This document shows positions 16,139 through 41,738 of a DNA stretch of 64,000 nt, in pieces. Source of the DNA: Candidatus Omnitrophota bacterium (lineage in GTDB: Bacteria > Omnitrophota > Gorgyraeia > Ghiorseimicrobiales > Ghiorseimicrobiaceae). The position numbers and the translations under genes are program-made. Below the pieces are notes generated by a model. That model was not told the DNA's origin, searched no databases, and saw only the letters and a list, made by a program, of their open reading frames with translations. The stretch's first letter is position 1, and each line of letters starts with the position of its first letter. Location: the NCBI GenBank assembly GCA_030681595.1, contig JAUXSB010000055.1, positions 364-64,363 of the forward strand, given 5' to 3'.

Positions 16139-16213
16139 TTATGGAAGCGCAATTTTTGTTAGCAAATTTATTTTGAATAGACGGCCATCTAAGGACGGCT
16201 ATCTCTAACGGGG
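16093..16213. mobile_element. MITE-like element, copy 3 (121 bp). TIRs 'ccccgttagagat' and 'atctctaacgggg'. Subterminal hairpin 'tagacggccatctaaggacggct'.
   Basis: Overlaps the 3' end of hemA (stop at 16138 is inside the element). Ends 11 nt before the hemC ATG. Confidence 0.6.
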
Positions 16214-16224
16214 CGAGAAGCATC

Positions 16225-18775: not shown

Positions 18776-18971
18776 GATATTGTTCTCGGCGCTGAAAACT
18801 TTCGCCGAACGCTACGGTTTACGGCTTGTTCATTTGACGAAATTCCCTTCGGTCAGTTTCGTCATTCGGGGCACCCATCTGAAATGATGGGTCGCGTAAC
18901 TCCTTGTGTACATTTGCCGAAAGTTTTCTAATGCGCTTCGAACGAATCCTAAAATTTATTCATAAAAAACT
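18776..18971. repeat. ~195-bp structured intergenic element, paralogous to 20136-20408 (shared blocks 'gctgaaaactttcgccgaacgctacggtttacggct', 'gaattcccttcggtcagtt', 'catttgccgaaagttttctaatgcgctt').
   Basis: Direct comparison of the two spacers flanking the rSAM gene. Contains 'gccgaaag' hairpin arms related to the 42700/44255/45594 family. Confidence 0.5.
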
Positions 18972-20135: not shown

Positions 20136-20408
20136 AAGTCTTACGCTCCGCACTGAAATCTTTTGCCGACCGCTACAGTTTATGGCTCGTTCGCTTGCCA
20201 GCCCGATAATGTCGTTCTGGCGGGACGGAATTCCCTTCGGTCAGTTCCGTCGCTCACTCGCTATAAAACTTTGCAGTCATTTGCCAAAAGATTTCTAATG
20301 TGCTTACGCGTAAAACTTTCATTACCTTGCAAAGCATGTTTAGCTAAATCGTAAATTCGCTTCGAAAATACCAGCTTCGTTAAAAGTATTTGGAGAATTT
20401 GATTAAAT
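20136..20408. repeat. ~270-bp structured intergenic element, paralog of 18776-18971.
   Basis: See 18776-18971. Shared sequence blocks in the same order. Confidence 0.5.
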
Positions 20409-21416: not shown

Positions 21417-21456
21417 TTCCCACCTCCGAGGTGGGAAACGGTTAGAGTATAAATAT

Positions 21457-22500
21457 ATGGATAAGAAAAATGCTGACTTAAGGATGGTGGCGTGGGAGGT
21501 GACGCGCAGTTGCAATTTAGCCTGCGCGCATTGCCGTGCTTCCAGCAAAAAGGGGCCATATCCGAATGAGCTTTCCAAAGAAGAATGTTTCAAGGTTTTA
21601 GATGAAATTTCCGCGTTCGCCAAACCGGTGATAATCTTGACTGGCGGTGAGCCGCTATTAAGAAACGATATTTTTGAGATTGCTGAATATGGAAAAAAGT
21701 GCGGCCTTACAATGGTTATGGCGCCGAATGGGCTATTGCTTACGGATGAAAATATTAAAAAAATCATGGGCTCAGGTATTAAGCGCATATCGGTAAGTTT
21801 AGACGGCCCAGATGCAAAGACGCATGATGATTTAAGGCAGGTTTCGGGCGCATTTGTTGGAGCGGTTGAGGGGATAAAACGCGCAAAAAAAGCAGGATTG
21901 GAATTTCAGATAAATTCTACGATTACTAAACGCAATATCAAATACTTGCCTGACCTGATGAAATTGGCCAAGGATTTAGGGGCGGTGGCGCATCATATAT
22001 TTTTATTAGTGCCCACAGGACGCGGCAAGGAAATGGAGAAAGAGGAATTATCGCCACAGGAATATGAAGAAACGCTTAAATTTTTAGAAAAAGAAAAGAA
22101 AAATTTTCCTCTTCAGATAAAAGTTACCTGTGCTCCGCATTATAACCGGATACTGGCGCAGAATAACCCAGAAATTGGGGTTTCTTTGCGCGGCAGAGGT
22201 TGCATGGGAGGGGTAAGTTTTTGTTTTATTTCGCACGTGGGGGAGCTTTCGCCATGTGGTTATTTGGAGCTTAAATGCGGAAATGTGCGCAAAGAGGGTT
22301 TTAGAAAGGCATGGTTTGAGAGTGAGGTATTTAATAATTTAAGGGATTTTTCCAAGTTTAAAGGAAAATGTGGTATTTGTGAATTCAGGTTTGTTTGTGG
22401 AGGATGCCGTGCCCGCGCCTATGCCAAATACGGGGATTATCTTAGAGATGAACCGTATTGTGTGTATGAACCGAAAACCGCGGAACAACGCGGAAAGTAA
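21457..22500 (+). CDS. Radical SAM / SPASM heme-biosynthesis enzyme of the NirJ family (AhbC/AhbD-type), second copy.
   Basis: 'RSCNLACAHCR' CxxxCxxC. C-terminal 'CGICEFRFVCGGC'. Paralogous to 18972. Confidence 0.7.
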   Translation: MDKKNADLRMVAWEVTRSCNLACAHCRASSKKGPYPNELSKEECFKVLDEISAFAKPVIILTGGEPLLRNDIFEIAEYGKKCGLTMVMAPNGLLLTDENIKKIMGSGIKRISVSLDGPDAKTHDDLRQVSGAFVGAVEGIKRAKKAGLEFQINSTITKRNIKYLPDLMKLAKDLGAVAHHIFLLVPTGRGKEMEKEELSPQEYEETLKFLEKEKKNFPLQIKVTCAPHYNRILAQNNPEIGVSLRGRGCMGGVSFCFISHVGELSPCGYLELKCGNVRKEGFRKAWFESEVFNNLRDFSKFKGKCGICEFRFVCGGCRARAYAKYGDYLRDEPYCVYEPKTAEQRGK

Positions 22501-22523
22501 CGCGGAACAATGCGGAAAAGTAT

Positions 22524-22985
22524 ATGGTCAAAGAAAAACTAACGTTACTGGATAGGCAGATATTGAATAGGTTGCAGGAAGATATTCCGCTTGAGGCATG
22601 GCCGTGGCAAAAGATTGCTAGAGAGCTAAATATTAAAGAGGCAGCGTTTTTAAAACGCGTTGATTTTTTAAAGAAAAAGGGCATAATCCGGAGAATAGCC
22701 GCGACTTTTAATCCTAAAAAGGCTGGTTCTGTTTCAACGTTGGTAGCGGTAAACGCAAGCCCTTTAAAGGCGGATATTATTGCCAAAAGGATAAACGCCT
22801 TTAGCGAAGTAACGCATAATTACCTGCGCGATAACGAATATAATATTTGGTTTACAATTGTTGCACAAAGTAAAGAAAGAATTGCGCAGATCATAAAGAA
22901 GTTGAAACAGGATAAAGATATTGAGAAGATAATTGAACTTCCGGCAAAGCGATTGTTTAAGATAAGTGTAAGTTTTAAAATATAG
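22524..22985 (+). CDS. Siroheme decarboxylase subunit (AhbA/AhbB; Lrp/AsnC-like NirD/NirL family).
   Basis: 153 aa. N-terminal HTH-like 'DRQILNRLQEDIPLEAWPWQKIAREL' plus C-terminal AsnC-type domain. Tandem with a paralog. Confidence 0.65.
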   Translation: MVKEKLTLLDRQILNRLQEDIPLEAWPWQKIARELNIKEAAFLKRVDFLKKKGIIRRIAATFNPKKAGSVSTLVAVNASPLKADIIAKRINAFSEVTHNYLRDNEYNIWFTIVAQSKERIAQIIKKLKQDKDIEKIIELPAKRLFKISVSFKI

Positions 22986-22986
22986 A

Positions 22987-23448
22987 ATGTTATCAGCATT
23001 GGATAAAAAAGTAATCAGCTTAATCTCTCAAGATATCTCTTTAACAGGCAGGCCGTTTAGAGAGATGGCGGATAGGTTAAATATCAGCGAAGCCCAGCTC
23101 TTAGGCCGCATAAATGGCTATAAGAGAAGCGGGCTTTTACGAAAATTTTCCGCGGTGCTTAATCATCGCAAGGCAGGGTTTATTGCCAACGCGATGTGTG
23201 TTTGGAACGTGCCGGAAAAGTCAGTTGCAAGAGCAGGCAGGATAATTACCGGATTTTCCGAGGTCAGTCATTGTTACGAGCGTAAGCGTGCTTTAGGATG
23301 GAATTATAATCTATACGCTATGGTGCACGGGAAAACCAAAGCTGAATGCCTTGGAGCAGCCAAAAAGATATCGCAAAAAATCGGATTTTCTGATTGTAAA
23401 ATTTTATTTTCCTCAAAAGAGTATAAAAAAACAGGGGTAAAGTATTAA
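22987..23448 (+). CDS. Siroheme decarboxylase subunit (AhbA/AhbB), second paralog.
   Basis: 153 aa. 'KKVISLISQDISLTGRPFREMADRL' is the same architecture as 22524. Confidence 0.65.
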   Translation: MLSALDKKVISLISQDISLTGRPFREMADRLNISEAQLLGRINGYKRSGLLRKFSAVLNHRKAGFIANAMCVWNVPEKSVARAGRIITGFSEVSHCYERKRALGWNYNLYAMVHGKTKAECLGAAKKISQKIGFSDCKILFSSKEYKKTGVKY

Positions 23449-23484
23449 TAAAATACCAGGTAGCGGGTAGAGAGAAATATCACG

Positions 23485-24771
23485 ATGAAAAATCGCATAA
23501 AATCAAAACAATATTTTAGCCAAGCGCAAAAGGTTATTCCCGGCGGGGTGAATAGCCCGGTGCGGGCGTTTGGGGCTGTGGGCGGAGAGCCGGTATTTAT
23601 TGCTAGGGGTAAAGGGGCTTATATTTATGATGTGGACGGGAATAAATATATTGATTATGTTTTGTCTTGGGGGCCGATGATTTTGGGGCATGTTGATAGC
23701 AGGGTTATAAAAGAAGTTGCTAAAACTCTGAAAAATGGCACCAGTTTTGGCGCGCCGACTAAAAAGGAAATTGAATTAGCGGAGTTAATTACCGAGATTT
23801 ATCCTTCTATTGAAAAAGTGCGGTTGGTTTCATCTGGCACAGAGGCGGCAATGAGCGCAATCAGGCTTGCCCGGGGGTTTACGGGAAAAGATAAGATAAT
23901 TAAGTTTGAAGGCTGTTATCACGGTCATTTTGACAGCTTATTAGTTAAGGCCGGTTCCGGCCTTGCCACTTTTGGCGTGCCTTCATCAAAGGGCGTAACC
24001 AAAGGTATCGCGCAGGACACTATTGCTTTGCCGTTTAATGATATTGCTAAAGTAAAAGAGGTTATAGAAAAAGAAAAGGATAATCTTGCCTGCGTAATCG
24101 TTGAGCCGATTCCGGCAAATATGGGGGTTATTTTGCCAAAGGGCAATTTTCTGACAACGTTAAGGGAGATTACTAAAAAGTATAATATTGTGTTGATTTT
24201 TGATGAGGTAATTAGCGGTTTTCGTGTTGCTTTGGGCGGGGCGCAGGAAATTTTCGGGATAAAACCGGATTTAACGGTTTTGGGAAAAATTATCGGCGGT
24301 GGGTTTCCGATTGGTGCATTTGGCGGTAGGGCCGACATAATGAATTATCTTTCACCCGAAGGCCCGGTGTATCAGGCAGGTACTTTATCAGGGAATCCTG
24401 TGGCGGTCAGCGCGGGCCTTGCTACCATAAAAGCGCTTACGAAAGAAGGCACCCATGAAAAATTGGATAATATTACGCAAGCGTTAATAGGCGGGCTTAG
24501 TAAAATCATCGTAAAAACTAATCACAAAGCCGTAATCAATCGTATCGGCTCTTTATTTACGATATTTTTTAGTGACAAAAATATAATTTGTGATTATAAT
24601 GATGCTTCATCTTGCGATTTAAAAAAGTTTGCTAAGTTTTTCCAAGGGATGCTTGCGCAGGGGATATATCTAGCGCCGTCGCAATTTGAGGCGAATTTCA
24701 TTTCAGTAAAACACAGCCTGCAGGATATCGTAAAAACTATCAGGTCTGCCGAGCGCGTTTTGACTAAGTAG
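23485..24771 (+). CDS. hemL: Glutamate-1-semialdehyde 2,1-aminomutase.
   Basis: 'IPGGVNSPVRAF' and 'YIDYVLSWGPMILGH'. PLP-lysine region 'VLGKIIGGGFP'. Confidence 0.9.
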   Translation: MKNRIKSKQYFSQAQKVIPGGVNSPVRAFGAVGGEPVFIARGKGAYIYDVDGNKYIDYVLSWGPMILGHVDSRVIKEVAKTLKNGTSFGAPTKKEIELAELITEIYPSIEKVRLVSSGTEAAMSAIRLARGFTGKDKIIKFEGCYHGHFDSLLVKAGSGLATFGVPSSKGVTKGIAQDTIALPFNDIAKVKEVIEKEKDNLACVIVEPIPANMGVILPKGNFLTTLREITKKYNIVLIFDEVISGFRVALGGAQEIFGIKPDLTVLGKIIGGGFPIGAFGGRADIMNYLSPEGPVYQAGTLSGNPVAVSAGLATIKALTKEGTHEKLDNITQALIGGLSKIIVKTNHKAVINRIGSLFTIFFSDKNIICDYNDASSCDLKKFAKFFQGMLAQGIYLAPSQFEANFISVKHSLQDIVKTIRSAERVLTK

Positions 24772-24800
24772 CATGATTAGGGGAGGCGAGAAAAGAAGGA

Positions 24801-25640
24801 ATGAGTAATCTTGTAATCAGCAAGAAAAAGTTCTTTATAGCGATTGGCGTTTTATTTGTGCTCTCGGTAATCATTTTATTTGCGGGTATCAGCGTTTCCG
24901 AAAATCCTAAATTTTGCAATACCTGCCATATAATGAAACCTTATTACAAAGCATGGAAAGATTCAGCTCATAAAAATGTCCATTGCCTGGATTGTCACTA
25001 TGAACCAAATTGGAGATCACATCTAAAAGGTAAGATAAACGGCCTTGTTCAGGTTATTGATTATGTGACCGGGCGCTATTCCGAGCGGGCAGTTGCTAAA
25101 ATAGGCGATGCCTCCTGTTTAAGGGACGGTTGCCATACTAAGGAAAAAATCATAAATACCAAGATTATGTTTAAAGATAAGGTTTCGTTTAACCATGCTA
25201 CGCATTGGCGCGATTTTGATGAAATGGGCAAAGGGGTACACCTAAGATGCACAACTTGTCATTCGTGGTTGACTTATGATAAGCACATATCGGTAGATGA
25301 AAACACCTGTTTCATTTGTCATTTTAAGAATGTGCCTGTGGAAAAGATAACCGAGCAGTGCCAAAGTTGCCATACCGAGGTTGAGAGAATAGCCGGCCAC
25401 AAAGAATATTTAGCGGAGGGGATGCATTGCGCCGAGTGCCATGCTACCATAAAAACTACCAATGCCCCGGTATTACAACAGATGTGTTATTTCTGCCATG
25501 CGGATAGCGAAAAAATACACAAGGCCGATGAAGCAAATAAGGTAAAGAATAGGGAATTCTTGCATCAGAGGCATATTACTCAAAATAATGCCGATTGTAT
25601 TAATTGTCATGAGTTGATAAAACACGGAAAAGAAAATTAA
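24801..25640 (+). CDS. Membrane-anchored multiheme cytochrome c of the NapC/NirT/NrfH family (8-9 heme-binding motifs).
   Basis: N-terminal TM 'FFIAIGVLFVLSVIILFAGI', then CNTCH, CLDCH, an atypical C-x4-CH ('CLRDGCH'), CTTCH, CFICH, CQSCH, CAECH, CYFCH, CINCH. Confidence 0.75.
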   Translation: MSNLVISKKKFFIAIGVLFVLSVIILFAGISVSENPKFCNTCHIMKPYYKAWKDSAHKNVHCLDCHYEPNWRSHLKGKINGLVQVIDYVTGRYSERAVAKIGDASCLRDGCHTKEKIINTKIMFKDKVSFNHATHWRDFDEMGKGVHLRCTTCHSWLTYDKHISVDENTCFICHFKNVPVEKITEQCQSCHTEVERIAGHKEYLAEGMHCAECHATIKTTNAPVLQQMCYFCHADSEKIHKADEANKVKNREFLHQRHITQNNADCINCHELIKHGKEN

Positions 25641-25674
25641 AGCGCATAGAAATTTTACAAGTTTTATCTTTTTT

Positions 25675-27516
25675 TTGCTTCTTTTGGGTTTTTCGCAGGA
25701 TAAATCTTTTTGCCAAGAGGATATCCAAGATAAAGATTGCCTGGCCTGTCATGATGGCTTTAAGGTCGAGGAGTATAATACTTCTGCTCATGCTGCTAAG
25801 CTTTTTTGCGTATCTTGCCATGCCGATATCCGCCAAATTCCTCACCCTGAAAAATTAGCCAAAGTAAACTGCGCAAATTGTCATAGTATTGAATCTGAAG
25901 CCTACAATATTTCTGATCATGGCAAAGCTGTTAAAGCCGGCATTCCCGCGGCCGGCTGTCTTGATTGCCATGGAGCGCCTCATGCGATTTTGGAGCGAGG
26001 CAATCCTCATTCTTTGGTATATCATCTTAATATACCCCAGACGTGCGCAAAGTGCCACGAAGATGAAGAAAAAATAGAAAAGTATAATTTACTGGAAAAA
26101 AAACCGGTTACGTCATACTTAGAAACCGTCCATGGCAGAGCGATTACAGAACAAGGCATGATTTCAGCCGCGGTGTGTACTGATTGCCATGGCTCGCATG
26201 ATTCATTTTCTCAAACAAATCCAAAATCAAAGATCTATCGGCTAAACGTGCCTAATACCTGCGGTAAGTGCCACAGCGACATACTTGACGTTTATTCGCG
26301 CAGTATCCACGGTAAATCTGTAGCGGCCGGTAAGACAGATGCGCCGGTATGCACTGATTGCCATGGCGAACACACGATAAAATCGCATAAAGATCCCGCG
26401 TCATCAGTATATTCAACCGTGATAACGGAAAAGACATGCGGCCAATGCCATGCCTCTGAGCGAATCGCAAGTAAATATAAATTGCCTCCGGACCGCCTGG
26501 AAACCTATTTTGAGAGTTATCATGGGCTGGCTAGCAGGTTAGGCGTGACAACAGTGGCTAATTGCGCCAGCTGTCACGGGGTCCATGATATTCTGCCTTC
26601 CAGTGATCCAAGTTCCACGATTCATAAAAATAATATCCCGCATACCTGCGGTAAGTGCCATGAGAAAGCAGGAGTAAATTTAGCCAAAGGTTCAGTACAT
26701 ATTGCTCCGTCCCCAGAGCGAGATAAGGCGGTTTATTACGTAAGCCTGTTATATATTTTATTAATCAGCTTGACTATCAGCGGGATGTTGGTGCATAATA
26801 TTGTCTATCTTTTACCTAAGATAAGAGAGCATTACCGCAGGCATAAAGAAGAGGCCAAATATACCCGTTTTACAATAAACGAACGCCTGCAGCATCTTAT
26901 TTTGGTGGCTTCATTTATTTTATTAGCATACACGGGATTCGCTTTGCGGCATCCTAATGCTTGGTGGGCGGCTCCGTTTACAATTTGGAGCCCCGGCTTT
27001 GATTGGCGGGGGATAGCCCACAGAATACTGGCGATATTGTTTGGCGTTTTAGTGGCTTACCATACGTATTATTTGTATTGTACAAGGCGCGGGAGAGAAC
27101 AATGCAGGGCTTTATTACCCAAGAAGGAAGATGTATTTTATTTTATCAATCTAGCGCAATATAACTTAGGCATCAAACAGCAAAAACCGGCTCACGCCGC
27201 GAAGTATGACTATATTGAAAAAGTAGAGTATTGGGCGCTTGTCTGGGGATCGCTTATTATGATTGTTACGGGTTCAATGCTTGCTTTCGAAAACCTTTTC
27301 TTGCAGTATTTTCCTAAATGGGTATTGGATGTCGCCAGGTCAATACATTACTACGAAGCTGTCTTGGCTGTTTTGGCGATTATCGTCTGGCATATGTTTT
27401 TTGTTTTCTTTGATCCGGACCATTATCCGGTTAACCTGTCAATGTTAATAGGGAAATCAACCAAGAAATGTGATGAAGCGGACGGTGATATTAAGGAACA
27501 GCCGCCTAAAGCCTGA
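25675..27516 (+). CDS. Multiheme cytochrome c (11 CxxCH) fused to a C-terminal cytochrome-b (HydC/FdnI, Ni/Fe-hydrogenase b-type) membrane domain; CbcL-like. The N-terminus is probably longer than the track shows (see findings).
   Basis: 11 CxxCH. Repeating 'IHGK...CTDCHG(E/S)H...CGKCH' units. C-terminal 4-TM domain with conserved His ('HLILVASFILLAYTGFALRH', 'HRILAILFGVLVAYH', 'IHYYEA'). Confidence 0.75.
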   Translation: MLLLGFSQDKSFCQEDIQDKDCLACHDGFKVEEYNTSAHAAKLFCVSCHADIRQIPHPEKLAKVNCANCHSIESEAYNISDHGKAVKAGIPAAGCLDCHGAPHAILERGNPHSLVYHLNIPQTCAKCHEDEEKIEKYNLLEKKPVTSYLETVHGRAITEQGMISAAVCTDCHGSHDSFSQTNPKSKIYRLNVPNTCGKCHSDILDVYSRSIHGKSVAAGKTDAPVCTDCHGEHTIKSHKDPASSVYSTVITEKTCGQCHASERIASKYKLPPDRLETYFESYHGLASRLGVTTVANCASCHGVHDILPSSDPSSTIHKNNIPHTCGKCHEKAGVNLAKGSVHIAPSPERDKAVYYVSLLYILLISLTISGMLVHNIVYLLPKIREHYRRHKEEAKYTRFTINERLQHLILVASFILLAYTGFALRHPNAWWAAPFTIWSPGFDWRGIAHRILAILFGVLVAYHTYYLYCTRRGREQCRALLPKKEDVFYFINLAQYNLGIKQQKPAHAAKYDYIEKVEYWALVWGSLIMIVTGSMLAFENLFLQYFPKWVLDVARSIHYYEAVLAVLAIIVWHMFFVFFDPDHYPVNLSMLIGKSTKKCDEADGDIKEQPPKA

Positions 27517-27588
27517 TGGCGATGGCGGCTAAATTAAACCCGGAATTTATATCAGGGTATAATCCGGGTTGAAGAGGAGGGTGTTTAG

Positions 27589-28125
27589 ATGCGCAGGGTA
27601 GTTTTAAGCGGGGCAGCAGTATTGTCGTTGTGTCTAGGTAGCTTGGTCTTTGCACAAGGGAATCATAAGTATATCGGGGTAAAGAAGTGTTCTATGTGCC
27701 ATAAGTCTGATGAAAAGGGAAATCAATATAATCAGTGGCTTTCTACTAAGCATGCTAAAGCATATGAAACGTTAGCCACCGATGCAGGTAAAGAAACAGC
27801 GCAAAAAGCGGGAGTTACCGGGAATCCTCAAGAAGAACCTAAGTGTTTGAAGTGCCATGTGACAGCATATGGAGTGGATAGCGGTTTATTAGAGGAAGGT
27901 TTGAAGAAAGAAGACGGCGTGCAGTGCGAAGCTTGTCATGGCGCCGGAAGTGATTATATGTCGATGAGTGTTATGAAGGATAAACAAAAAGCAATTGAAG
28001 CGGGCCTTGTTATGCCGACACAAGAAGTTTGCCTAAAGTGCCATAATGAGGAAAGCCCGAATTATAAAGAGTTTAAGTTTGATGAGTTTTATCCAAAAGT
28101 TACGCATCCTAATCCAAAAAAATGA
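27589..28125 (+). CDS. Periplasmic tetraheme cytochrome c.
   Basis: Signal peptide 'MRRVVLSGAAVLSLCLGSLVFA'. CSMCH, CLKCH, CEACH, CLKCH. RBS 'gaggagggtg'. Confidence 0.8.
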   Translation: MRRVVLSGAAVLSLCLGSLVFAQGNHKYIGVKKCSMCHKSDEKGNQYNQWLSTKHAKAYETLATDAGKETAQKAGVTGNPQEEPKCLKCHVTAYGVDSGLLEEGLKKEDGVQCEACHGAGSDYMSMSVMKDKQKAIEAGLVMPTQEVCLKCHNEESPNYKEFKFDEFYPKVTHPNPKK

Positions 28126-28259
28126 AGCTATAAGTTATGGCGGCGTCAGCCAACATAACTTATTCGGTTGAATTTACCCAGCACTTATTTTATTAGCATT
28201 AAATAAGTGCTGGGTTCAATGCGCACCTATAAGTTACGTCGTTTGACACTCCGTAACTT
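28126..28259 (+). promoter_or_regulatory. Three consecutive hairpins: 'ataagttatg..cataacttat', a ~20-bp stem 'ttgaatttacccagcacttattt / aaataagtgctgggttcaa', and 'ataagttacg..cgtaacttat'.
   Basis: Inverted repeats read directly, between the cytochrome stop and the ccsB start. The outer hairpins belong to the 'ATAACTTA/TAAGTTAT' leader family. Confidence 0.4.
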
Positions 28260-29327
28260 ATGTGCTTACTGAAAATGATTAAGCAGACAAAAATCTGGAA
28301 GTTTTTTTCATCAATAAAGCTGGCGATATGGCTGCTTGCTATTATCGCTATATTTTCTTTGATTGGAACGTTTATTCCGCAAGGACAAGAGCCCGCGGAG
28401 TATACTAGCCATTACGGGAGTTCCGCATATAATCTCTTAAATATAACAGGCCTGACTCATGTTTATTCAAGCTGGTGGTTTATTTTATCGTTGGCTTTGC
28501 TTACCTTAAACCTTTCCGTTTGCCTTATCAATAGGTTTTCATTAAAGCCTATTTTATTGGGTACGATGATTTCGCATTTTAGCGTCTTGCTGATATTTGC
28601 CGGGGCATTGGTCGGCATGTTTTTCGGTGAAAAAGGCTATGTGCAGATTAAGGAAGGGGAAAGCATTAGTTCTTTTATTTCTGAAAATAAAAAAGTGGAT
28701 TTAGGTTTTACGCTTAGGTTAGATGATTTTATTTATGAGGAAGAAATAAGCCCTAAGGAAAAATTATTGATTTACTCTCATGAAGATAACAAACTTTTGA
28801 AAGAAGTTGCTGTGAGTTTAGGCAAAGAAATTAGTTTCGGCGAAGGCTATAAAGTTAAAATTATGCGTTTTATCCCTGATTTCAGCATGGATCTTACTAC
28901 AAAAGAGGTAGTAAGCCGTTCGTCTGAGCCGAGGAATCCCGCTATAGAGATAGAGCTGAAAGATAGAGAGGGCAATGCAAAAACATTTTGGGTGTTTGCG
29001 AATTTTCCAGATATGCATTCAGTGCAAACAGATTTTAGATTCGTCTATCAGTGGGGGATGCGGCGGCCAAAGGATTTTATCAGCAAGGTTACAGTATTAA
29101 AAGGCGCAGAAGAAGTAGCGAAGAAGGACATTAAGGTAAATTTTCCCCTGAAGTTTAACGGTTATTCCTTTTTTCAGTCAAGTTATGACAGGGAAAATTT
29201 AAGCTGGTCGGGGTTGCAAATAAATAAAGACCCGGGAGTGTCGGTAGTGTATACGGGGTTTCTTTTGCTGCTTTTAGGGTTAAGCATTATTTTTTATGTA
29301 AACCCTTTGGTTAGGAGGAAGAAATGA
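28260..29327 (+). CDS. ccsB: Cytochrome c biogenesis protein, system II (ResB/CcsB).
   Basis: N-terminal 'KIWKFFSSIKLAIWLLAIIAIFSLIGTFIPQ', a large periplasmic domain and a C-terminal TM, as in ResB. Immediately upstream of ccsA. Confidence 0.8.
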   Translation: MCLLKMIKQTKIWKFFSSIKLAIWLLAIIAIFSLIGTFIPQGQEPAEYTSHYGSSAYNLLNITGLTHVYSSWWFILSLALLTLNLSVCLINRFSLKPILLGTMISHFSVLLIFAGALVGMFFGEKGYVQIKEGESISSFISENKKVDLGFTLRLDDFIYEEEISPKEKLLIYSHEDNKLLKEVAVSLGKEISFGEGYKVKIMRFIPDFSMDLTTKEVVSRSSEPRNPAIEIELKDREGNAKTFWVFANFPDMHSVQTDFRFVYQWGMRRPKDFISKVTVLKGAEEVAKKDIKVNFPLKFNGYSFFQSSYDRENLSWSGLQINKDPGVSVVYTGFLLLLLGLSIIFYVNPLVRRKK

Positions 29328-30103
29328 ACATGCTTTCCCTGTATTTAAACATTGCTTTTGCCGCTTATTTTGCGGCGATGATTTTTTATTTTGCCAACTT
29401 ATTTTTTAAAAATAAAGCCATATCATATCTTGCGCGTTTATCTATTATTCTAGGCGTTTTAACGCTAACGATATATATAGCTCTGCGCGGGCTCGCTGCC
29501 GGGCGGCCGCCATTAAGTAATATGTTTGAATCGTTGGTTGTTTTTGCCTTGGCCATCGGCTTAACCGGAATATTTATTGACTTAAAATATAACCTCAAAA
29601 ATATTAATGCTTTGGTTTCTTTGATGGGGTTATTGAGTTTAGGGGCTGCTTCTTTGTTAGATAAGGAGATTGTTCCGTTAATGCCGGCCTTAAAGAGTAA
29701 TTGGTTGACTATCCATGTATTGACCTGTTTTGTCGGTTATGCCTCGCTCACCGTAGGTTTTGTTACAAGTTTAGTATTGGTATTTAGCAAAAGAAGCAGC
29801 GAGCAACTGGATACAATCAGCTATAAAATGATTGCTTTTGGCTTTCTTTTTTTAACACTTGGGATTATTACAGGGGCTGTTTGGGCGAATTCGGCTTGGG
29901 GCACATACTGGAGCTGGGATCCTAAAGAAACATGGTCATTAATCACATGGATTGTCTATGCCATATACTTGCATATGCGCCTGCGTGCCGGATGGCGCGG
30001 GAAAAAAGCGGCTTGGCTTTCGGTTATAGGGTTTTTAGCGATGCTTTTTACATATTTTGGGGTAAATTATTTACTTTCAGGGTTGCATAGTTATGCGTCA
30101 TAA
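29324..30103 (+). CDS. ccsA: Cytochrome c-type biogenesis protein CcsA/ResC (system II heme lyase subunit).
   Basis: WWD domain 'WGTYWSWDPKETWSLITW'. Conserved His residues. 259 aa. Overlaps ccsB by 4 nt. Confidence 0.85.
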   Translation: MNMLSLYLNIAFAAYFAAMIFYFANLFFKNKAISYLARLSIILGVLTLTIYIALRGLAAGRPPLSNMFESLVVFALAIGLTGIFIDLKYNLKNINALVSLMGLLSLGAASLLDKEIVPLMPALKSNWLTIHVLTCFVGYASLTVGFVTSLVLVFSKRSSEQLDTISYKMIAFGFLFLTLGIITGAVWANSAWGTYWSWDPKETWSLITWIVYAIYLHMRLRAGWRGKKAAWLSVIGFLAMLFTYFGVNYLLSGLHSYAS

Positions 30104-32864
30104 GAGGAGAGCACTATTATATTTTATAATTATTTTCTTGTGCGCACCTGCCGTTTACGCTTTCGAAAATGCCGATTGCCTTGCTTGCCACCAGGAAAAA
30201 AATTTTACTACAGAGCGTCAAAATAAGACAGTTTCGCTTTATGTAAACAAGCAGGAATTTAAGCAATCCGTTCACGGCGGCCTCGTATGCATTACCTGCC
30301 ACGCCGACCTTACTAATAGCGATTTTCCCCATAAAACACCTCTGCCGCCTGTAAATTGCATAATTTGCCATAAGGATATGCAGAAAGGGTTTTCAGGCAG
30401 CGTTCATGGGAAAGCTTTGGATAGAGGCGATAATCTTGCTCCCCGGTGCCAGAGTTGCCATGGCGCACATAACATCCGTTCTGTAAAGGATAAGGATTCT
30501 AATCTGTCCGCGTTGCGCGTTCCCTTTGTCTGCGGTTCATGCCACAGCGAAGGAAGCCCAGTGCAACTTCAACGTGAGATACACCAGAGTCACATTTTAG
30601 AGAATTATTCGGAAAGTATCCACGGAGAGGGCCTTTTTAAAAAAGGCCTAATCGTAAGTGCTACCTGTGTTTCCTGCCATGGCGCGCACGAGATATACCC
30701 TCATACAGACCCGCGGTCGTCAATCGCGCATGAAAATGTCGTAGATACCTGCCTAAAATGCCATGCTCAGATTGAAGAGGTTCATAGAAAAGTAATTAAC
30801 GGCGAATTATGGGAGGATAGGCCGCAAGCTATTCCTGTTTGTGTTGATTGCCACGAGCCGCATAAGGTGAGAAAAGTTTTTTATGAGCAGGGTGTGGCAG
30901 ATAAGGATTGCCTTTTGTGTCACGCGAAAGAGGAAATTAAATCATCGTCTGACGGCCGCTCTCTCTTTGTAAATTATGATGAGCTCAAGGGTTCTATGCA
31001 TTCTAAAACCTCCTGCGCTAAATGCCATAGTGAAGTTTTGCCTTCAAAAGAGCGCGCATGCGAAACAATAAAGTCAAAAGTTAATTGTGCGGTTTGTCAT
31101 AGCGATCAGGTGGGGCAGTATCAGCAAAGCACTCACGGCAAGCTTTATAATCAAAAAGATCCCAATGCGCCGTCATGTATAGAATGCCATGGAGCGCATT
31201 CTGTATTAAGCAAGAATAATGTTACATCGCAGACGTATCCAACAAATGTGCCGGTGTTGTGCGCTAGATGCCATAGAGAAGAAGAAAAGGCCGCGATTCG
31301 TTATCAGGGCAAAGAACATGAAATACCTGAGCATTATACGGAAAGTATCCACGGTAAGGGCTTATTGAAGAGTGGGCTTGTGGTAACAGCTATGTGCACT
31401 AGCTGTCATACGGCGCATATGGAATTGCCGTCACAGGATCCGCGCTCAAGCGTTAACCGTAGTAATATCGCCTCTACTTGTGCTAAGTGCCATAAAGGAG
31501 TTTATGAAAAATATATGGGCAGTATTCACGCCCCAGGGAAGAGCAAAACCCCTGATAAGCTTCCAGTATGCAGTGATTGTCATAGCGCGCATTCAATTAA
31601 GCGCACAGATATGGATACATTTAAATTTGATATTATGAATATCTGTGGCAAATGCCATTTAGATATCTCCAAAACATATTTTGAGACTTTTCATGGCAAA
31701 GCCACCAAGCTTGGTTATGCTAAGACTGCCAAATGTCATGACTGTCATGGGGCGCATGAGATCTTGCCTCCTGAAGATGCTCACTCCAGCTTAAGCCGTG
31801 AAAATATTATTTCTACATGTCAAAAATGCCATCCGGGCGCAACCAAGAGATTTGCAGGATATTTAACGCATGCCACTCATCACGATCCAAAGAAATACCC
31901 TTGGATTTTCTTGACTTTCTGGGCGATGACCGCGCTTCTTGTCGGCACATTTGTAGCCAGCGGGATTCATGTACTTTTATGGCTTCCAAAATCTTTGCAA
32001 ATGAGGCGGCTCTATCCGTCAAAAGCTTACGACCCTAATGAAAAGCAGTACATAAGGTTTTCTTTATTAAACAGGATACTTCATGCGGTAATGATTGTAA
32101 GTTTCTTGACCCTTTCTATTACCGGGATGACGCTAAAATTTTCTTATACGAAATGGGCAATTTTTATCTCGCGTCTTTTAGGAGGGTTTGAGGTTTCCGG
32201 GTTTCTGCACCGCTCGGCCGCGGTTTGCTTATTTGGGCTTTTTGCTGTCCATATTTGGGATCTCCTGCGTCGTAAGCGTTGTGAATTTAGAACTTGGAAA
32301 AACATGCTTTTGGGCCCAAACACGATACTTTTTACATTAAAAGACGTGCGTGAATTTATCGCGACAATTAAATGGTATATGGGCAAAGGTGAACGGCCGC
32401 AATACGGGTGCTGGACTTATTGGGAAAAGTTTGATTATTTCGCGGTATTTTGGGGTATTGCGGTTATCGGTTTTTCAGGGCTTATGCTTTGGTTTCCTGA
32501 AATCTTTACCAGAATTTTACCGGGTTGGGTCATTAATGTCGCGACCATTGTCCATAGCGACGAGGCCCTGTTGGCTGTCGGTTTTATTTTTACAATACAT
32601 TTTTTCAATACGCATTTTCGGCCGGAGAAGTTTCCTATGGATACGGTTATTTTTACAGGACGCCTGCCTTTAGAAGATTTAAAGCATGAAAGGCCGGCTG
32701 AATATGAAGAGCTTCTGGCGCGTAAGGAGTTTGAAAAACGCCTTGTCCTTCCCATGCCTCCAAAAGCAATGAAAACAATTAGGATTTTTGCCTGGACTGC
32801 GCTCATAATAGGTTTAAGCCTTGTTGTCTGTATTATTTATACGATGATATTTGCATATAAATGA
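30093..32864 (+). CDS. Giant multiheme cytochrome c (~19 CxxCH) fused to a C-terminal cytochrome-b (HydC/FdnI-like) membrane domain; second CbcL-like protein.
   Basis: 19 CxxCH motifs counted. Signal peptide 'LLYFIIIFLCAPAVYA'. C-terminal TM domain 'ILHAVMIVSFLTLSITGMTLKF...HRSAAVCLFGLFAVH...'. 923 aa. Confidence 0.8.
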   Translation: MRHKRRALLYFIIIFLCAPAVYAFENADCLACHQEKNFTTERQNKTVSLYVNKQEFKQSVHGGLVCITCHADLTNSDFPHKTPLPPVNCIICHKDMQKGFSGSVHGKALDRGDNLAPRCQSCHGAHNIRSVKDKDSNLSALRVPFVCGSCHSEGSPVQLQREIHQSHILENYSESIHGEGLFKKGLIVSATCVSCHGAHEIYPHTDPRSSIAHENVVDTCLKCHAQIEEVHRKVINGELWEDRPQAIPVCVDCHEPHKVRKVFYEQGVADKDCLLCHAKEEIKSSSDGRSLFVNYDELKGSMHSKTSCAKCHSEVLPSKERACETIKSKVNCAVCHSDQVGQYQQSTHGKLYNQKDPNAPSCIECHGAHSVLSKNNVTSQTYPTNVPVLCARCHREEEKAAIRYQGKEHEIPEHYTESIHGKGLLKSGLVVTAMCTSCHTAHMELPSQDPRSSVNRSNIASTCAKCHKGVYEKYMGSIHAPGKSKTPDKLPVCSDCHSAHSIKRTDMDTFKFDIMNICGKCHLDISKTYFETFHGKATKLGYAKTAKCHDCHGAHEILPPEDAHSSLSRENIISTCQKCHPGATKRFAGYLTHATHHDPKKYPWIFLTFWAMTALLVGTFVASGIHVLLWLPKSLQMRRLYPSKAYDPNEKQYIRFSLLNRILHAVMIVSFLTLSITGMTLKFSYTKWAIFISRLLGGFEVSGFLHRSAAVCLFGLFAVHIWDLLRRKRCEFRTWKNMLLGPNTILFTLKDVREFIATIKWYMGKGERPQYGCWTYWEKFDYFAVFWGIAVIGFSGLMLWFPEIFTRILPGWVINVATIVHSDEALLAVGFIFTIHFFNTHFRPEKFPMDTVIFTGRLPLEDLKHERPAEYEELLARKEFEKRLVLPMPPKAMKTIRIFAWTALIIGLSLVVCIIYTMIFAYK

Positions 32865-32924
32865 GCTTAAGGGGCATAGTATTTTTTGAATAGGAGTTGT
32901 TAATTTATTCGGGGGTGGGTAGCC

Positions 32925-33902
32925 ATGCATAACAAAACCAGAAACCAGAAACCAGAAGCCAGAAGCCAGAAAATTATTTCTTTTTACCGGTTTGTATGTT
33001 TGATTATATTTTTGTCTTCTTCCCATGTTTCTTTTGTAATTGCGCAGGAGAAGGAGTTCAAAAAGGGATGCCGCGCCTGCCATAGCGAACAAATAGATAA
33101 ATGGGATGCGTCAGAGGTCAGGCATTTTCCTTACGCTCGGGAAAAATGTGAGTCTTGCCATGCGGCGGAGCATAAAAAATTTACCCCGTTAGAGAAAAAC
33201 AGCGATAAGGTTAACAGTGAAAACATGGTTAGTAATGGTGAATTAACTCAGGCATCAGCAGGTACTGTTGGAGAAAGTTCTCTAACGGGGTTTACCGCAG
33301 AACAGGAGAAGCCTTGCTTAATCTGCCATGATTTAAATTCGGAAAAAATCAAAAAAGCGCATTTTTCCGGCGATTTAACCGGCGTAAATTGTTTTAACTG
33401 TCATTATACGCATGCCGCGGATAAAAAAGGCCTGCTTAAGGAATCTGTACATGAGCCGTTTGTTTCAGGTATGTGCGATGCCTGCCATAATATCAGCGCT
33501 GAAGGTAAAATAGAAGTGAAGGGACAAACCAAGAAAATCTGCCTTGCCTGTCATTCCAGTTTACTAACAAAGGACGATACAGTAAAACATTCCGGTTATG
33601 ATATGCTGGAATGTGTTGATTGTCACAATCCCCACACTAGTAGTGAAAAATGGCTTTTAAAGAAGAAAATAACACAAATTTGCTTTGATTGTCATGGTAA
33701 AGAGGAGGCGGCAAAGCACCCGTATGATGTAGTGCCTTCACAAAAAATAAATCTTGACAAAGGCAATGAAATATGGTTAACTAATGATAGGCAAATGAGT
33801 TGCGTAAGCTGCCATAATCCTCATTCAGCAAAAATTCCCTTTCTGCTGAGAGAGTCCCTCGAGGATGGGAAGCTCTGTAATATTTGTCATCCAAAACAAT
33901 AA
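32925..33902 (+). CDS. Decaheme c-type cytochrome with an N-terminal signal anchor. Contains a heptamer-repeat-encoded N-terminal stretch and an internal MITE-TIR-bounded insertion.
   Basis: 10 CxxCH (CRACH, CESCH, CLICH, CFNCH, CDACH, CLACH, CVDCH, CFDCH, CVSCH, CNICH). 'TRNQKPEARSQK' is encoded by (aaccaga)n. Confidence 0.8.
   Translation: MHNKTRNQKPEARSQKIISFYRFVCLIIFLSSSHVSFVIAQEKEFKKGCRACHSEQIDKWDASEVRHFPYAREKCESCHAAEHKKFTPLEKNSDKVNSENMVSNGELTQASAGTVGESSLTGFTAEQEKPCLICHDLNSEKIKKAHFSGDLTGVNCFNCHYTHAADKKGLLKESVHEPFVSGMCDACHNISAEGKIEVKGQTKKICLACHSSLLTKDDTVKHSGYDMLECVDCHNPHTSSEKWLLKKKITQICFDCHGKEEAAKHPYDVVPSQKINLDKGNEIWLTNDRQMSCVSCHNPHSAKIPFLLRESLEDGKLCNICHPKQ
33184..33292. mobile_element. 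MITE-related insertion, copy 5 (~109 bp) inside the decaheme cytochrome ORF. Bounded by 'ccccgttagaga' and 'tctctaacgggg', with an internal sequence unlike copies 1-4.
   Basis: Both 12-nt termini match the TIRs of the family in inverted orientation at the expected spacing. Encodes the in-frame linker 'FTPLEKNSDKVNSENMVSNGELTQASAGTVGESSLTGF' between heme motifs. Confidence 0.45.
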
Positions 33903-33915
33903 AAGGAGTAAAAGC

Positions 33916-34893
33916 ATGAAAAGGAAAAATCTTTTTATAAGTTTATTAGTGAAATTATTCACGGTGATATTTTTCACTATAATTTTTTGCGGTTATTCGG
34001 GCTTAAGATTTTGTTTTGGGGAAGCAGCCAGCCGATATAAATTTCTTTATGATTTAAGTTCTAATACTTCCGGAATAGGTTCTCTTAATCAGCCAGCGGG
34101 TATAGCTGTTGATATTGCGGGGAATATTTACGTGGCAGATACCGTGAACAGCCGAGTGGTGGTCTTTGATGAGTTGGGAAAAATAAAACTCAGTTTTGGA
34201 AAATTAGGAGATAAAGCAGGGGAATTAAATGCTCCAATGGCGCTAATTGTCGATTCAAAGGGAGAGAAAGTATATGTAGCGGATTCATCCAATAACCGGG
34301 TACAGGTGTTTAAAATTAATGGCGAATTTATTTCAACGATAGATTTAAGCAAGGCTCTTAGCGATAAAGACAGGCTAGTACGGCCGATTGGGATCGCTAT
34401 TTCAAGCCAAGGCAATATTTACATTTCAGATGCGGATAATAATTATATCCGAGTTTATGATAGCGCAGGGAATTTTTTGTTTAAATTCGGGGGTTTCGGT
34501 GCCGAAGAAGGCAAACTCTGCCTGCCGGTGGGGTTATCTATTGATAAAAAAGATAATGTTTATGTGGTGGATATGAATAACGCAAGGCTGCAGATTTTTG
34601 ATAAAGAAGGAAAATTTTTATCGAAAATTGGCTCTCCCGGGGATACAAAAGGCAGCTTCGGTAAACCGAAGAGTGTTTATGTGGATAATAAAGGGGTGAT
34701 TTATGTTTCCGATGGAGCGAATCTAGTTATCCAAGCATTTGATAAACAGGGAAACTTTATAGATTTAATTGGGGCGGAGAAAGAAAAAGAACTACAGTTT
34801 GCTTCTCCGTTTGGATTGAGCGGGTATAATAACCGCCTTTATATAACTGATAGATGGAGAAATAGCGTAAGAGTTTATGAGGTTAAAAATTAA
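33916..34893 (+). CDS. NHL-repeat six-bladed beta-propeller protein with an N-terminal signal/TM. Start moved to the ATG at 33916, behind the RBS 'aaaggag'.
   Basis: Six repeats of the type 'P.GIAVD..GNIYVADT.NSRVVVFD..GKF' (NHL). The upstream part of the track ORF overlaps the cytochrome gene by 38 nt. Confidence 0.75.
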   Translation: MKRKNLFISLLVKLFTVIFFTIIFCGYSGLRFCFGEAASRYKFLYDLSSNTSGIGSLNQPAGIAVDIAGNIYVADTVNSRVVVFDELGKIKLSFGKLGDKAGELNAPMALIVDSKGEKVYVADSSNNRVQVFKINGEFISTIDLSKALSDKDRLVRPIGIAISSQGNIYISDADNNYIRVYDSAGNFLFKFGGFGAEEGKLCLPVGLSIDKKDNVYVVDMNNARLQIFDKEGKFLSKIGSPGDTKGSFGKPKSVYVDNKGVIYVSDGANLVIQAFDKQGNFIDLIGAEKEKELQFASPFGLSGYNNRLYITDRWRNSVRVYEVKN

Positions 34894-34914
34894 AATAAGA
34901 AGGGGGGTGAATTA

Positions 34915-36000
34915 ATGAAAAAGAATTTGGTTTTACTGTTAGTATTAGGATTATTGGTGGGTGTATATAGTTTTTCTTTTGCCAGCGTGGTAAATACTAA
35001 ACACGATATGTTTTTTATGAGCAAAGGAATTGACCCTAATGTGTGCGGTTATTGTCACGTTCCGCACAATGCGGCTGGTGATAAAATCTGGTCAACATGG
35101 GCAAATGAAGCGCAGCTAACTAGTGGGCCTTCAAGTACCATCGGTAATATGTGTTATACCTGTCACGATGGAACGGCAACGTCTTTAGGCCAGACTACCG
35201 CGTTTAATGCGGCTTTACAGCAGCATAAAACAGATACTGGGACAGATTGTAATATTTGCCATACAGTACATGATAATGCCAATGGGAAGTTTCTTGGTAT
35301 CGCTAAGACTCAGAGCGCAAATACAGAGTCGGCTACATACTGCGAAACCTGTCATGACGCGACAATGTATCCGGGGGCTGATCCGCACGGTGACCATTTA
35401 GCGGGAACCGAGCATCCGTATAAGGATACAGGCGCGGTATTAGATGAAAGCTGTAATGCCTGCCATCAGATGCATGGCGCGGTAAATTATACTACTACTT
35501 CTTTGACTAACCCGATACTTAAGGTAGCTAATGCCGATTCAGCCTATTGTGCGACGTGCCATGTTGGATATGTGCAGGCGGCTATCGGCGGTAATAAACA
35601 TCCGGCTAACTTGTCATCCGGTGGTTCTTGGGGTAAGGTTGACTGTGCAACTTGCCATGATCCGCATCAGCCGGCTGATTCTGGAAGGCCGTCTATACTT
35701 AAGGATGCCAATACTGATTCCGCATATTGCGCAACTTGCCATCAGGCAACGGGAACAGTTAAAGGACCCACAGTAGGAACATTTAGCCATCCTACAAGCG
35801 TTGGCTTTACAACAGTCGGTTTAACACCCGCGGGTAATAACATTGACGACGATAATGACGGCGCAGATTATCCGGGTAATTCCGCGTCTTTAGTCTGCGA
35901 AAGCTGCCATTCGGTACATAAGAAAGGTGTGAGTGGTAAACTTCTGCGTATTACGGCAACAGCTGGCGCGTTATGCGTTAACTGTCATAGCGGTAAATAA
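34915..36000 (+). CDS. Secreted multiheme c-type cytochrome (~9-10 CxxCH), paralog A of a tandem triplet.
   Basis: Signal peptide. Conserved N-terminal block 'KHDMFFMSKGIDPNVCGYCHVPHNAAGDKIWSTWANEAQL'. CxxCH spaced with distal His ('CHDPHQ', 'CHSVHK'). S/T/G/N-rich linkers. Confidence 0.8.
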   Translation: MKKNLVLLLVLGLLVGVYSFSFASVVNTKHDMFFMSKGIDPNVCGYCHVPHNAAGDKIWSTWANEAQLTSGPSSTIGNMCYTCHDGTATSLGQTTAFNAALQQHKTDTGTDCNICHTVHDNANGKFLGIAKTQSANTESATYCETCHDATMYPGADPHGDHLAGTEHPYKDTGAVLDESCNACHQMHGAVNYTTTSLTNPILKVANADSAYCATCHVGYVQAAIGGNKHPANLSSGGSWGKVDCATCHDPHQPADSGRPSILKDANTDSAYCATCHQATGTVKGPTVGTFSHPTSVGFTTVGLTPAGNNIDDDNDGADYPGNSASLVCESCHSVHKKGVSGKLLRITATAGALCVNCHSGK

Positions 36001-36036
36001 GCTTAGAGTAAGAGCGGAGAGCTTAGAGTAAAAAGT

Positions 36037-36078
36037 AGAGGGTAGCCTGTTAACTTACCGGCTACTCTCTACTTCTAA
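36037..36078 (+). terminator. Hairpin 'aagtagagggtagcc-tgttaacttacc-ggctactctctactt' (14-bp stem, one mismatch), followed by 'tctaaag'.
   Basis: Inverted repeat read directly between the cytochrome paralogs. Preceded by the direct repeat 'agcttagagtaa' x2. Confidence 0.4.
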
Positions 36079-36080
36079 AG

Positions 36081-37238: not shown

Positions 37239-37244
37239 TAATAA

Positions 37245-38417: not shown

Positions 38418-38481
38418 GTAGAGAGTATAGTGTATTGAGTATAGAGCAAAAGAATTAAAAATGAAGAATGAAGAATTATAA

Positions 38482-39927: not shown

Positions 39928-39936
39928 AAAGTTAAA

Positions 39937-41736: not shown

Positions 41737-41738
41737 TA

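Follow-up and report, generated by a model that had tools for sequence, protein, structure and literature searches.

We read two genes of a Candidatus Omnitrophota bacterium, with a probability of about 80%, as encoding a pair of paralogues: bc-type cytochromes of the inner membrane, of the CbcL/MtoC/MtrH kind and engaged in quinol:cytochrome electron transfer. Both lie on the forward strand of a 64,000-nucleotide stretch of contig JAUXSB010000055.1 (assembly GCA_030681595.1), hereafter the window. Gene B (25675-27516, 613 amino acids as listed) and gene F (30093-32864, 923 amino acids) were recognized from their CxxCH heme-binding motifs, from the cytochrome-b profile PF01292 and from structural models, and B also from its match to FdnI of E. 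coli. An earlier note, made from the DNA letters, had placed here two open reading frames with 11 and 19 CxxCH motifs, each ending in a cytochrome b in the manner of CbcL. This is indeed what we find: a periplasmic multiheme c domain fused to a diheme b domain of the FdnI/HydC type, attested by PF01292 and the FdnI match. Both architectures are already catalogued, the 19-heme form being a standard clade and not an outlier, and neither gene overturns current understanding. F is 100% identical to Q8L26_07635, a hypothetical protein at NCBI from a metagenome-assembled genome (MAG) of a Candidatus Omnitrophota bacterium.

Shuffled copies of B and F contain on average 0.07-0.11 CxxCH motifs and never more than two. 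A diheme unit, HG-x-CxxCHGxH-x-CxxCH, or more fully HG(K)..CxxCHGxH..N(I/V)PxTCxxCH, occurs three times in B and six times in F under a strict regular expression and fits the Pfam 'doubled CXXCH' model; it corresponds to the repeat pointed out in the earlier note. The two proteins are collinear: B aligns end to end with residues 261-857 of F (32% identity, E 1e-99), and the profiles of the two families match each other with an E-value of 3e-113. Within F, residues 24-262 (block 1) and 263-506 (block 2) are 37% identical (E 6e-57), which bears out the internal amplification suspected before, and residues 24-262 share 33-36% identity with the octaheme block of B (residues 17-238). Self-BLASTP of B and of F returned the identity alignment only; the duplication was demonstrated by explicit comparison of segments.

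Heme spacings repeat the same pattern. In B, the series 23, 21, 29, 29, 44, 28, 30 is followed by 29, 42, 28. In F, the series 37, 23, 30, 28, 45, 28, 30 and 35, 24, 30, 28, 45, 28, 30 are joined by a spacing of 23 and followed by 25, 30, 28. Segment alignments and spacings agree: B consists of an octaheme, a triheme and a cytochrome b (8+3), and F of an octaheme, a second octaheme, a triheme, a cytochrome b and one extra helix (8+8+3). F would then derive from a B-like protein to which another octaheme block and a sixth helix were added.

The heme-c domain of B covers residues 17-345 (25723-26709), as delimited by its motifs, its conserved histidines and its homology to F, and comprises the octaheme block and the triheme. 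F opens with a Sec-type signal peptide (MRHKRRALLYFIIIFLCAPAVYA, 30093-30161), read from the sequence. Identity and spacing define octaheme block 1 (residues 24-262, hemes 1-8, 30162-30878), the extra copy relative to B; identity and alignment define block 2 (residues 263-506, hemes 9-16, 30879-31610). The juxtamembrane triheme (residues 507-600, hemes 17-19, 31611-31892), recognized by spacing and conservation, contains an invariant THATHH motif.

Outside the CxxCH motifs, the periplasmic domain of B has 11 invariant histidines, one per heme; that of F has 18, plus the invariant Cys323 or His596. As the number of invariant distal histidines equals that of hemes, bis-His electron-transfer hemes are expected, and all c hemes of B and F are predicted to be of this type. 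The nine hemes of CbcL are bis-His by experiment (PMC9129911). A catalytic multiheme enzyme was considered and rejected: neither protein has a CxxCK or other special motif, and each heme has a candidate distal ligand.

A three-block alignment places Cys323 of F where His80 of F and His57 of B stand, the latter two being the invariant distal histidine of a 'PH' motif. The segment R321-x-C323 (31053-31061), in block 2, is invariant in 117 of 117 F-type proteins. Since an invariant cysteine replaces the distal histidine, one heme of F may be His/Cys-ligated.

The membrane domains score above the curated PF01292 (Ni_hydr_CYTB) cut-off of 30.1 bits, B clearly (63.4 bits, residues 398-580) and F marginally (31.6 bits, residues 655-836). 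In a sequence search of the PDB, the membrane domain of B has a single meaningful match, E. coli FdnI (1kqf_C, E 4e-9). AlphaFold2 models were built from 107 homologues of B and 117 of F, with mean predicted local distance difference test scores (pLDDT) of 84.5 and 81.4. For both models, FdnI (1kqf_C) is the top Foldseek match in the PDB, with a probability of 1.00 and TM-scores of 0.55 (B) and 0.77 (F).

The predicted heme-b ligands are His407 (helix TM1), His449 (TM2), His558 and His573 (TM4) in B, and His664 (TM1), His706 (TM2), His821 and His836 (TM4) in F. None of the four varies in any of the 107 sequences of B type or the 117 of F type. Residues H18, H155 and H169 of FdnI align with His407, His558 and His573 of B. 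The earlier note had seen conserved histidines on TM2 and TM4; both helices do carry them, but TM1 does as well, so that the set spans core helices 1, 2 and 4, the 'three-helix' motif described for CbcL and Fdn.

The membrane part was also said to have four transmembrane (TM) helices, which has to be corrected to five in B and six in F. In both proteins, a long linker helix, TM0, follows the last c heme and precedes the four-helix core; in F, one more helix follows at the C-terminus (residues 899-921, 32787-32855), placed by TM prediction and the model. TM0 of B (residues 353-375, 26731-26799) runs from periplasm to cytoplasm and carries His374; that of F (residues 604-628, 31902-31976) carries the invariant His626. 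Both were assigned by TM prediction and the models. The FdnI/HydC-type core spans residues 398-580 in B (26866-27414) and the FdnI-type core residues 655-841 in F (32055-32615), both supported by PF01292, histidine conservation and fold, and that of B also by the FdnI alignment. B and its close Omnitrophota relatives lack the C-terminal sixth helix of CbcL, MtoC, MtrH and F and have an acidic cytoplasmic tail instead (27415-27516).

Loops after TM0, TM2 and TM4 contain 5-12 Lys or Arg residues, those after TM1 and TM3 one or two. Because of this positive-inside pattern and of the Sec signal peptide of F, the heme-c domain is assigned to the periplasm and not to the cytoplasm. This fits a cytochrome-b core with a cytoplasmic N-terminus, as in FdnI. 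For B taken alone, the N-out topology depends on a signal peptide read from a non-canonical start, discussed below.

A conserved motif at the cytoplasmic start of TM3 aligns with the K108-W118 loop of FdnI; B reads YIEKxEYW there, and F the invariant GRWTYWEKFDY. We take N110, G112 and Q113 of that loop to line the menaquinone/2-heptyl-4-hydroxyquinoline N-oxide (HQNO) pocket.

Both proteins have further histidines on the cytoplasmic side without a ligand counterpart in FdnI: His374 (TM0, 26794-26796) and His463 (TM2, 27061-27063) in B, and His626, His720 and, after TM4, His841 in F. The three of F are 100% conserved in its family. In the B family, His374 is kept in 89% of sequences, with Tyr in the remainder, and His463 in 96%; between them the two positions show Tyr, Gln or Glu as substitutes, and the replacements are uncorrelated. 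A third heme b was rejected on these grounds, as the B histidines are only 89% and 96% conserved and their replacements do not co-occur. More probably, these residues serve the quinone site or interact with heme propionates.

FdnI (PDB 1KQF chain C) resembles B and F in its four histidines on helices 1, 2 and 4. It is, however, a separate 217-residue subunit fed by the iron-sulfur (FeS) clusters of FdnH, whereas the b domains of B and F are fused to a heme-c domain. The TM4 histidine pair is 14 residues apart in FdnI and 15 in B and F, and the extra conserved cytoplasmic-side histidines of TM0 and TM2 are a feature of B and F, not of FdnI.

By another explanation, B and F would be membrane cytochrome-b subunits that serve a periplasmic enzyme, be it a formate dehydrogenase, a hydrogenase or a thiosulfate reductase. 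It is suggested by the automatic names of homologues at JGI ('cytochrome b subunit of formate dehydrogenase', 'thiosulfate reductase cytochrome b subunit') and by weak matches to the NCBIfam models FdnI, FdoI and HydC. The scores of these matches, however, fall far below the cut-offs (49.6 against 115.85, and similar), and neither the window nor any of seven related loci has a gene for a molybdopterin, NiFe or FeS catalytic subunit. The fused heme-c domain moreover constitutes a covalent periplasmic partner. We therefore hold this explanation to be highly improbable and return to bc cytochromes of the CbcL/MtoC/MtrH kind.

CbcL of Geobacter sulfurreducens (GSU0274) is, like B and F, a single polypeptide with an N-terminal periplasmic bis-His multiheme c domain, a linker helix and an FdnI/HydC-type diheme cytochrome b, and like them it has no FeS, flavin or molybdenum subunits. 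Its last heme spacings, 29, 28, 43, 28, are close to the 30, 29, 42, 28 of B, and the spacing of TM helices is near-identical too (CbcL positions from PMC6295460). CbcL has nine hemes and six predicted TM helices, in contrast to 11 and five in B and 19 and six in F; this mismatch excludes orthology to CbcL, not membership of the family. The hosts differ as well, Desulfuromonadia for CbcL and Omnitrophota for B and F, and potential-dependent switching is a feature of CbcL.

F is nearer to MtoC (Dechloromonas, Gallionella) and MtrH (Rhodoferax), which show the same fusion, a sixth C-terminal helix and outer-membrane conduit genes alongside. Their last spacings, 31, 25, 30, 28, compare with 30, 25, 30, 28 in F (MtoC/MtrH positions from PMC6295460). 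MtoC and MtrH have nine hemes in ~655-673 residues and are linked to mtoAB/mtrAB, whereas F has ten more hemes and a Pcc-like conduit.

In CbcBA of Geobacter, multiheme c and cytochrome-b subunits jointly form a quinol oxidase; in the window these parts are fused, and a comparable split form occurs in Acidobacteriota (see below). ImcH (GSU3259) and the NapC/NirT/NrfH/CymA proteins are, like B and F, alternative inner-membrane entries to extracellular electron transfer. ImcH and the NapC-type proteins lack a cytochrome b and have a periplasmic-side quinol site, and neither B nor F belongs among them. The ImcH pattern consists of three N-terminal TM helices, a NapC/NirT-like region and seven motifs spaced ~24, 49, 106-109, 117, 20 and 38-40; B and F depart from it by their C-terminal cytochrome b and other heme spacings. 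No ImcH-like protein is encoded in the window. The Pfam assignments of the window contain no act-type genes (ActABCDEF), although no comparison directed at ActA was made.

The survey of Zhong & Shi (2018) found CbcL/MtrH/MtoC homologues in 15 phyla, with 416-1034 residues, 3-23 CxxCH motifs and 4-6 TM helices, mostly six (PMC6295460). Its Table S2 lists A3C47_05160 (OGW82754.1), other 19-heme proteins of 907-952 residues and an 11-heme Omnitrophica protein of 649 residues (PMC6295460). The first of these (P0008 in our set) is an Omnitrophica protein 73% identical to F. F falls within a clade of 19-heme proteins of ~910-950 residues (OGW82754.1, OGW95399.1, WP_105502606.1, BAX79136.1), with the same 19 motifs, spacings and six TM helices, and differs from the 19-heme proteins of Table S2 by species-level divergence only. 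Proteins of F type, of ~920 residues and at 59-83% identity, occur in Omnitrophota, Elusimicrobia, Acidobacteria and Latescibacteria.

The number of motifs is stable in both families: among the 120 best database hits, 114 of those to F have 19 and 107 of those to B have 11. The 19-heme form is hence not unusually large, as had been supposed, given also the published range of 3-23 motifs and a 30-heme relative, P0032, described below. Relatives of B type were found in at least 583 species, counting one genome per species, and Acidobacteriota dominate the best 80. A literature search on 19-heme forms, on extracellular electron transfer in Omnitrophota and on CbcL or ImcH in Acidobacteria MAGs returned nothing on the clade beyond the 2018 survey; the 19-heme clade has previously been listed only, never dissected.

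Few gates are known that connect the quinone pool to extracellular electron transfer, and CbcL-type bc cytochromes are one of them. The 11-heme form is spread over many phyla, mainly in lineages of soil and groundwater that have not been cultured; the 19-heme form is widespread too and, for a multiheme cytochrome, conserved to an unusual degree. The 8+3 and 8+8+3 blocks, the His-to-Cys swap and the pairing of B with F offer handles for structural and genetic work. What remains of particular interest is the 8+8+3 layout with its His-to-Cys swap, the co-location of B with F (and with ImcH or NapC types), including a fusion, and the non-canonical start of B.

Several points weigh against assigning B and F to this family and function. 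The link to CbcL is drawn from motif spacing and from the homologue table in the literature, not from a direct alignment, and within CbcL-type bc cytochromes experiment covers the nine-heme Geobacter protein and no 11- or 19-heme member. The PF01292 score of F exceeds the cut-off by just 1.5 bits, many homologues of F come without a precomputed PF01292 match, and the membrane domain of F alone finds no match at E<=1 in a sequence search of the PDB. The models lend their support at the level of the overall fold. His57 of FdnI lies four residues, or one helical turn, off His449 of B, beside an alignment gap. No genes of quinone biosynthesis were found within the window. Relatives of MtoC type live in Fe(II) oxidizers, which bears on the direction of flow. 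Finally, no ATG, GTG or TTG stands between the in-frame stop at 25618-25620 and the TTG at 25675 from which B is listed.

This last point concerns the true start of B. From the listed TTG 25675, B has no signal peptide. Upstream of it and in frame, positions 25636-25674 encode a signal-peptide-like stretch that together with the first residues of B reads I/M-KAHRNFTSFIFFLLLLGFSQDKSFC, as supported by homologues and by comparison with the related genome L001; homologues of B have their signal peptide here. Positions 25618-25690 correspond to 9935-10010 of L001; of the 48 bases that begin with ATT 25636, 47 are shared by the two genomes, the sole change turning TTG 25675 into TTA, a synonymous Leu codon. 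TTG 25675 is thus not a conserved start. We consider ATT 25636, which overlaps the TAA stop of the preceding gene A, to be the likeliest start of B.

It might instead be argued that B is decaying or not exported, for want of a usable start ahead of its signal peptide. Besides the missing ATG, GTG or TTG, a database search returned no B protein from the source MAG, whereas F was found at 100% identity, and a gene caller shortened a 92%-identical homologue of B in like manner. Decay is nonetheless very unlikely. Two genomes keep the reading frame of B open although 11% of their bases there differ: against L001, base identity is 88.9% overall and 95%, 96% and 76% by codon position, which indicates purifying selection. 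All 11 motifs and every ligand histidine are retained, and the upstream stretch has changed by a single synonymous base. We also rejected a fusion of genes A and B by read-through or frameshift on topological grounds: a hydrophobic helix would lie between the two heme-c domains and the hemes of B would end up in the cytoplasm.

If B and F are functional bc cytochromes of the CbcL/MtoC/MtrH kind, the following mechanism may be proposed. Both would be exported N-terminus first, and the c hemes would be attached in the periplasm by CcsBA. TM0 would return the chain to the cytoplasm, after which the four-helix FdnI-type bundle would hold two stacked b hemes: one on the periplasmic side between the TM2 and TM4 histidines, and one on the cytoplasmic side between those of TM1 and TM4. 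As in FdnI and CbcL, a pocket by the cytoplasmic-side heme b would be where (mena)quinol is oxidized or quinone reduced. We place the site there because of the homology to FdnI and of the argument that Joshi et al. made for CbcL (10.1101/2022.08.31.506072). Electrons could pass from quinol to the cytoplasmic-side heme b, to the periplasmic-side heme b and into the 11 (B) or 19 (F) c hemes. From there they may reach soluble cytochromes, presumably the products of gene C and genes G-K, and then an outer-membrane conduit.

Given the architecture, we favour outward flow, that is, quinol oxidation for extracellular respiration, as the somewhat more probable direction. It is favoured by ImcH-like neighbours in related loci, by the anaerobic heme route and by a window that lacks markers of an oxidase or of Fe(II) oxidation. 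Heme would be made here via siroheme, by the Ahb route with radical-SAM enzymes, which is typical of anaerobes. As regards ImcH-like genes, Zhong & Shi found them only in Fe(III) reducers (PMC6295460). Outward flow would release protons in the cytoplasm and conserve little energy, as argued for CbcL.

The reverse is appreciably less probable: B and F would then reduce quinone with electrons drawn from outside the cell, be it from Fe(II), a cathode or a partner cell, a role that has been proposed for MtoC. CbcL/MtrH/MtoC homologues are known from Fe(III) reducers as well as from Fe(II) oxidizers, and no sequence feature parts them (PMC6295460); the juxtamembrane heme spacing of F fits MtoC/MtrH, not CbcL. 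An FdnI-type arrangement is energy-conserving in the inward direction (10.1101/2022.08.31.506072); with the quinone site on the cytoplasmic side, inward flow would take up protons there, in a half-loop as in Fdn-N. On the other hand, the window contains no Cyc2, terminal oxidase or CO2-fixation genes, and both the heme route and the ImcH-like genes beside B-type genes of related loci argue for outward flow.

The neighbours of B-type genes were examined in the best 80 B-type loci, one genome per species. Genes of F and B type directly adjoin each other in Acidobacteriota, in other Omnitrophota and in Planctomycetota, Kiritimatiellales and Terriglobales (L002 10001-14978; L003 10001-14980; L005 8157-12790; L014, L026, L030, L049). 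In Acidobacteria, the F-type gene comes first, followed by a B-type gene with 13 hemes (714 residues, 40% identical to B); in other Omnitrophota, Planctomycetes, Kiritimatiellales and Terriglobales, the B-type gene is directly followed by the F-type. A fused 19-heme F-type gene is present in five of the 80 loci, and ccs genes in ten.

An ImcH-like gene neighbours the B-type gene in 27 of the 80 loci (e.g. L005 6610-8118; L007, L009-L011, L014, L019); its product has ~500 residues, heme spacings of 49, 109, 117, 20, 40, in agreement with the published ImcH homologues, and a preceding CxxxCH. In 13-18 of the 80, the B-type gene is accompanied by a split F-type module, made of an 11-heme cytochrome and a separate cytochrome b of ~305 residues. 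In Terracidiphilus and other Acidobacteriaceae (loci L029, L031, L035, L041, L043, L062, L067, L071, L074, L075, L083 and L086), the split module lies just upstream of the B-type gene, and its ~305-residue cytochrome b best matches the membrane domain of F. The Acidobacteriaceae module looks like an unfused version of the F-type one.

One protein unites both types. P0032 (L087 1008-5708; 1566 residues, 30 CxxCH) consists of a B-type part 42% identical to B and an F-type part 58% identical to F, joined through the signal-peptide helix of F; it comes from a single 7-kb metagenomic contig. This natural fusion, and the closeness of B- and F-type genes, which stand side by side or with few genes between them in Omnitrophota, Acidobacteriota, Planctomycetota and Kiritimatiellales, would suit two subunits of one complex, for instance a cytochrome-b heterodimer with 30 c hemes. 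We regard such a complex as rather unlikely. Some 70% of the 80 B-type loci have no F-type neighbour, some F-type genes stand alone, and the fusion is known from one contig. Alternative oxidases, each tuned to its own potential as in Geobacter, would lead one just as much to expect paralogues next to each other.

B and F could also be cast in a more ambitious scheme, which we consider doubtful: the 19-heme chain of F might reach across most of the periplasm and wire the quinone pool directly to the conduit, with a His/Cys heme of the duplicated block as a low-potential gate, and F might work jointly with B, the two forming a conserved multi-entry module for extracellular electron transfer with a NapC- or ImcH-type cytochrome.

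In the window, B and F belong to a heme and cytochrome island that extends from ~8.9 to ~48.5 kb, with all genes on the forward strand and short gaps or overlaps between them; L001 has its genes in the same order. For Omnitrophota, which have few cultured members, the locus represents a concrete respiratory chain of heme supply, maturation, three candidate inner-membrane modules, carriers and conduit. Scans of positions 23000-42900 were uninformative on operon limits, for promoters (51 sites against 50.6 in shuffles) as for terminators (14 against 20.5, none of them intergenic).

Gene A (24801-25640, forward strand), directly upstream of B, encodes a NapC/NirT/NrfH-like membrane-anchored cytochrome c of 279 residues, with one N-terminal TM helix, eight CxxCH and one CxxxxCH. 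It matches PF03264 with 41 bits and the NrfH model TIGR03153 with 60 bits, the latter below its cut-off, and is a candidate third quinol-interacting module. L001 has a gene at the same position, and other phyla hold an ImcH-like gene there. Downstream of B, gene C (27589-28125, forward strand) encodes a soluble tetraheme cytochrome of the c554-like type, with 178 residues and a signal peptide (PF13435, 78 bits). Its product is a candidate periplasmic partner, and in several phyla genes of this type recur beside those of B type. Next, the genes of system II cytochrome c maturation, ccsB (ResB; 28260-29327; PF05140, 165 bits) and ccsA (29324-30103; PF01578, 180 bits), follow on the forward strand, so that, as noted earlier, ccsBA (28260-30103) is flanked by B and F.

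Downstream of F, positions 32925-38417 (forward strand) hold periplasmic or extracellular cytochromes and an NHL propeller, identified by motifs and Pfam. They comprise a 10-heme cytochrome (32925-33902), a beta-propeller of NHL repeats that begins with a hydrophobic helix (33865-34893) and a set of three cytochrome paralogues of 10, 11 and 11 hemes (34915-38417). These three share the N-terminal motif SKHDMFF..G.DPNVCGYCH.PHNA.

The next genes (38482-42656, forward strand) appear to constitute a porin-cytochrome (Pcc)-like outer-membrane conduit, to judge by their motifs and a weak porin match. A 13-heme cytochrome (38482-39927) is followed by a beta-barrel-like protein of 599 residues (39937-41736) and an 11-heme cytochrome (41739-42656). 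The middle protein is rich in Ser, Thr and Asp, carries a signal peptide, terminates in ...SMRF and matches Porin_4 below the cut-off; it would be the outer-membrane barrel. After the 11-heme cytochrome comes an LpoB/CsgG-like lipoprotein with an LAGC lipobox, which extends the set to 38482-43769.

Heme supply is encoded at 8924-24771 and 47813-48526, by HemA, HemC, CobA-HemD, SirC, HemB, HemL, two radical-SAM/SPASM proteins, two NirD/L-like proteins and two CcdA/DsbD-like proteins. The radical-SAM and NirD/L-like proteins are the signature of the siroheme-dependent Ahb route. The island also includes a 4Fe-4S protein and a truncated second CcsA-like open reading frame (14486-14956). Directly upstream of the heme genes lies a type II secretion/type IV pilus set (1119-8610) with a secretin, a GspF-like protein, a prepilin-like protein and a GspE/MshE-like ATPase, which could serve the export of outer-surface cytochromes.

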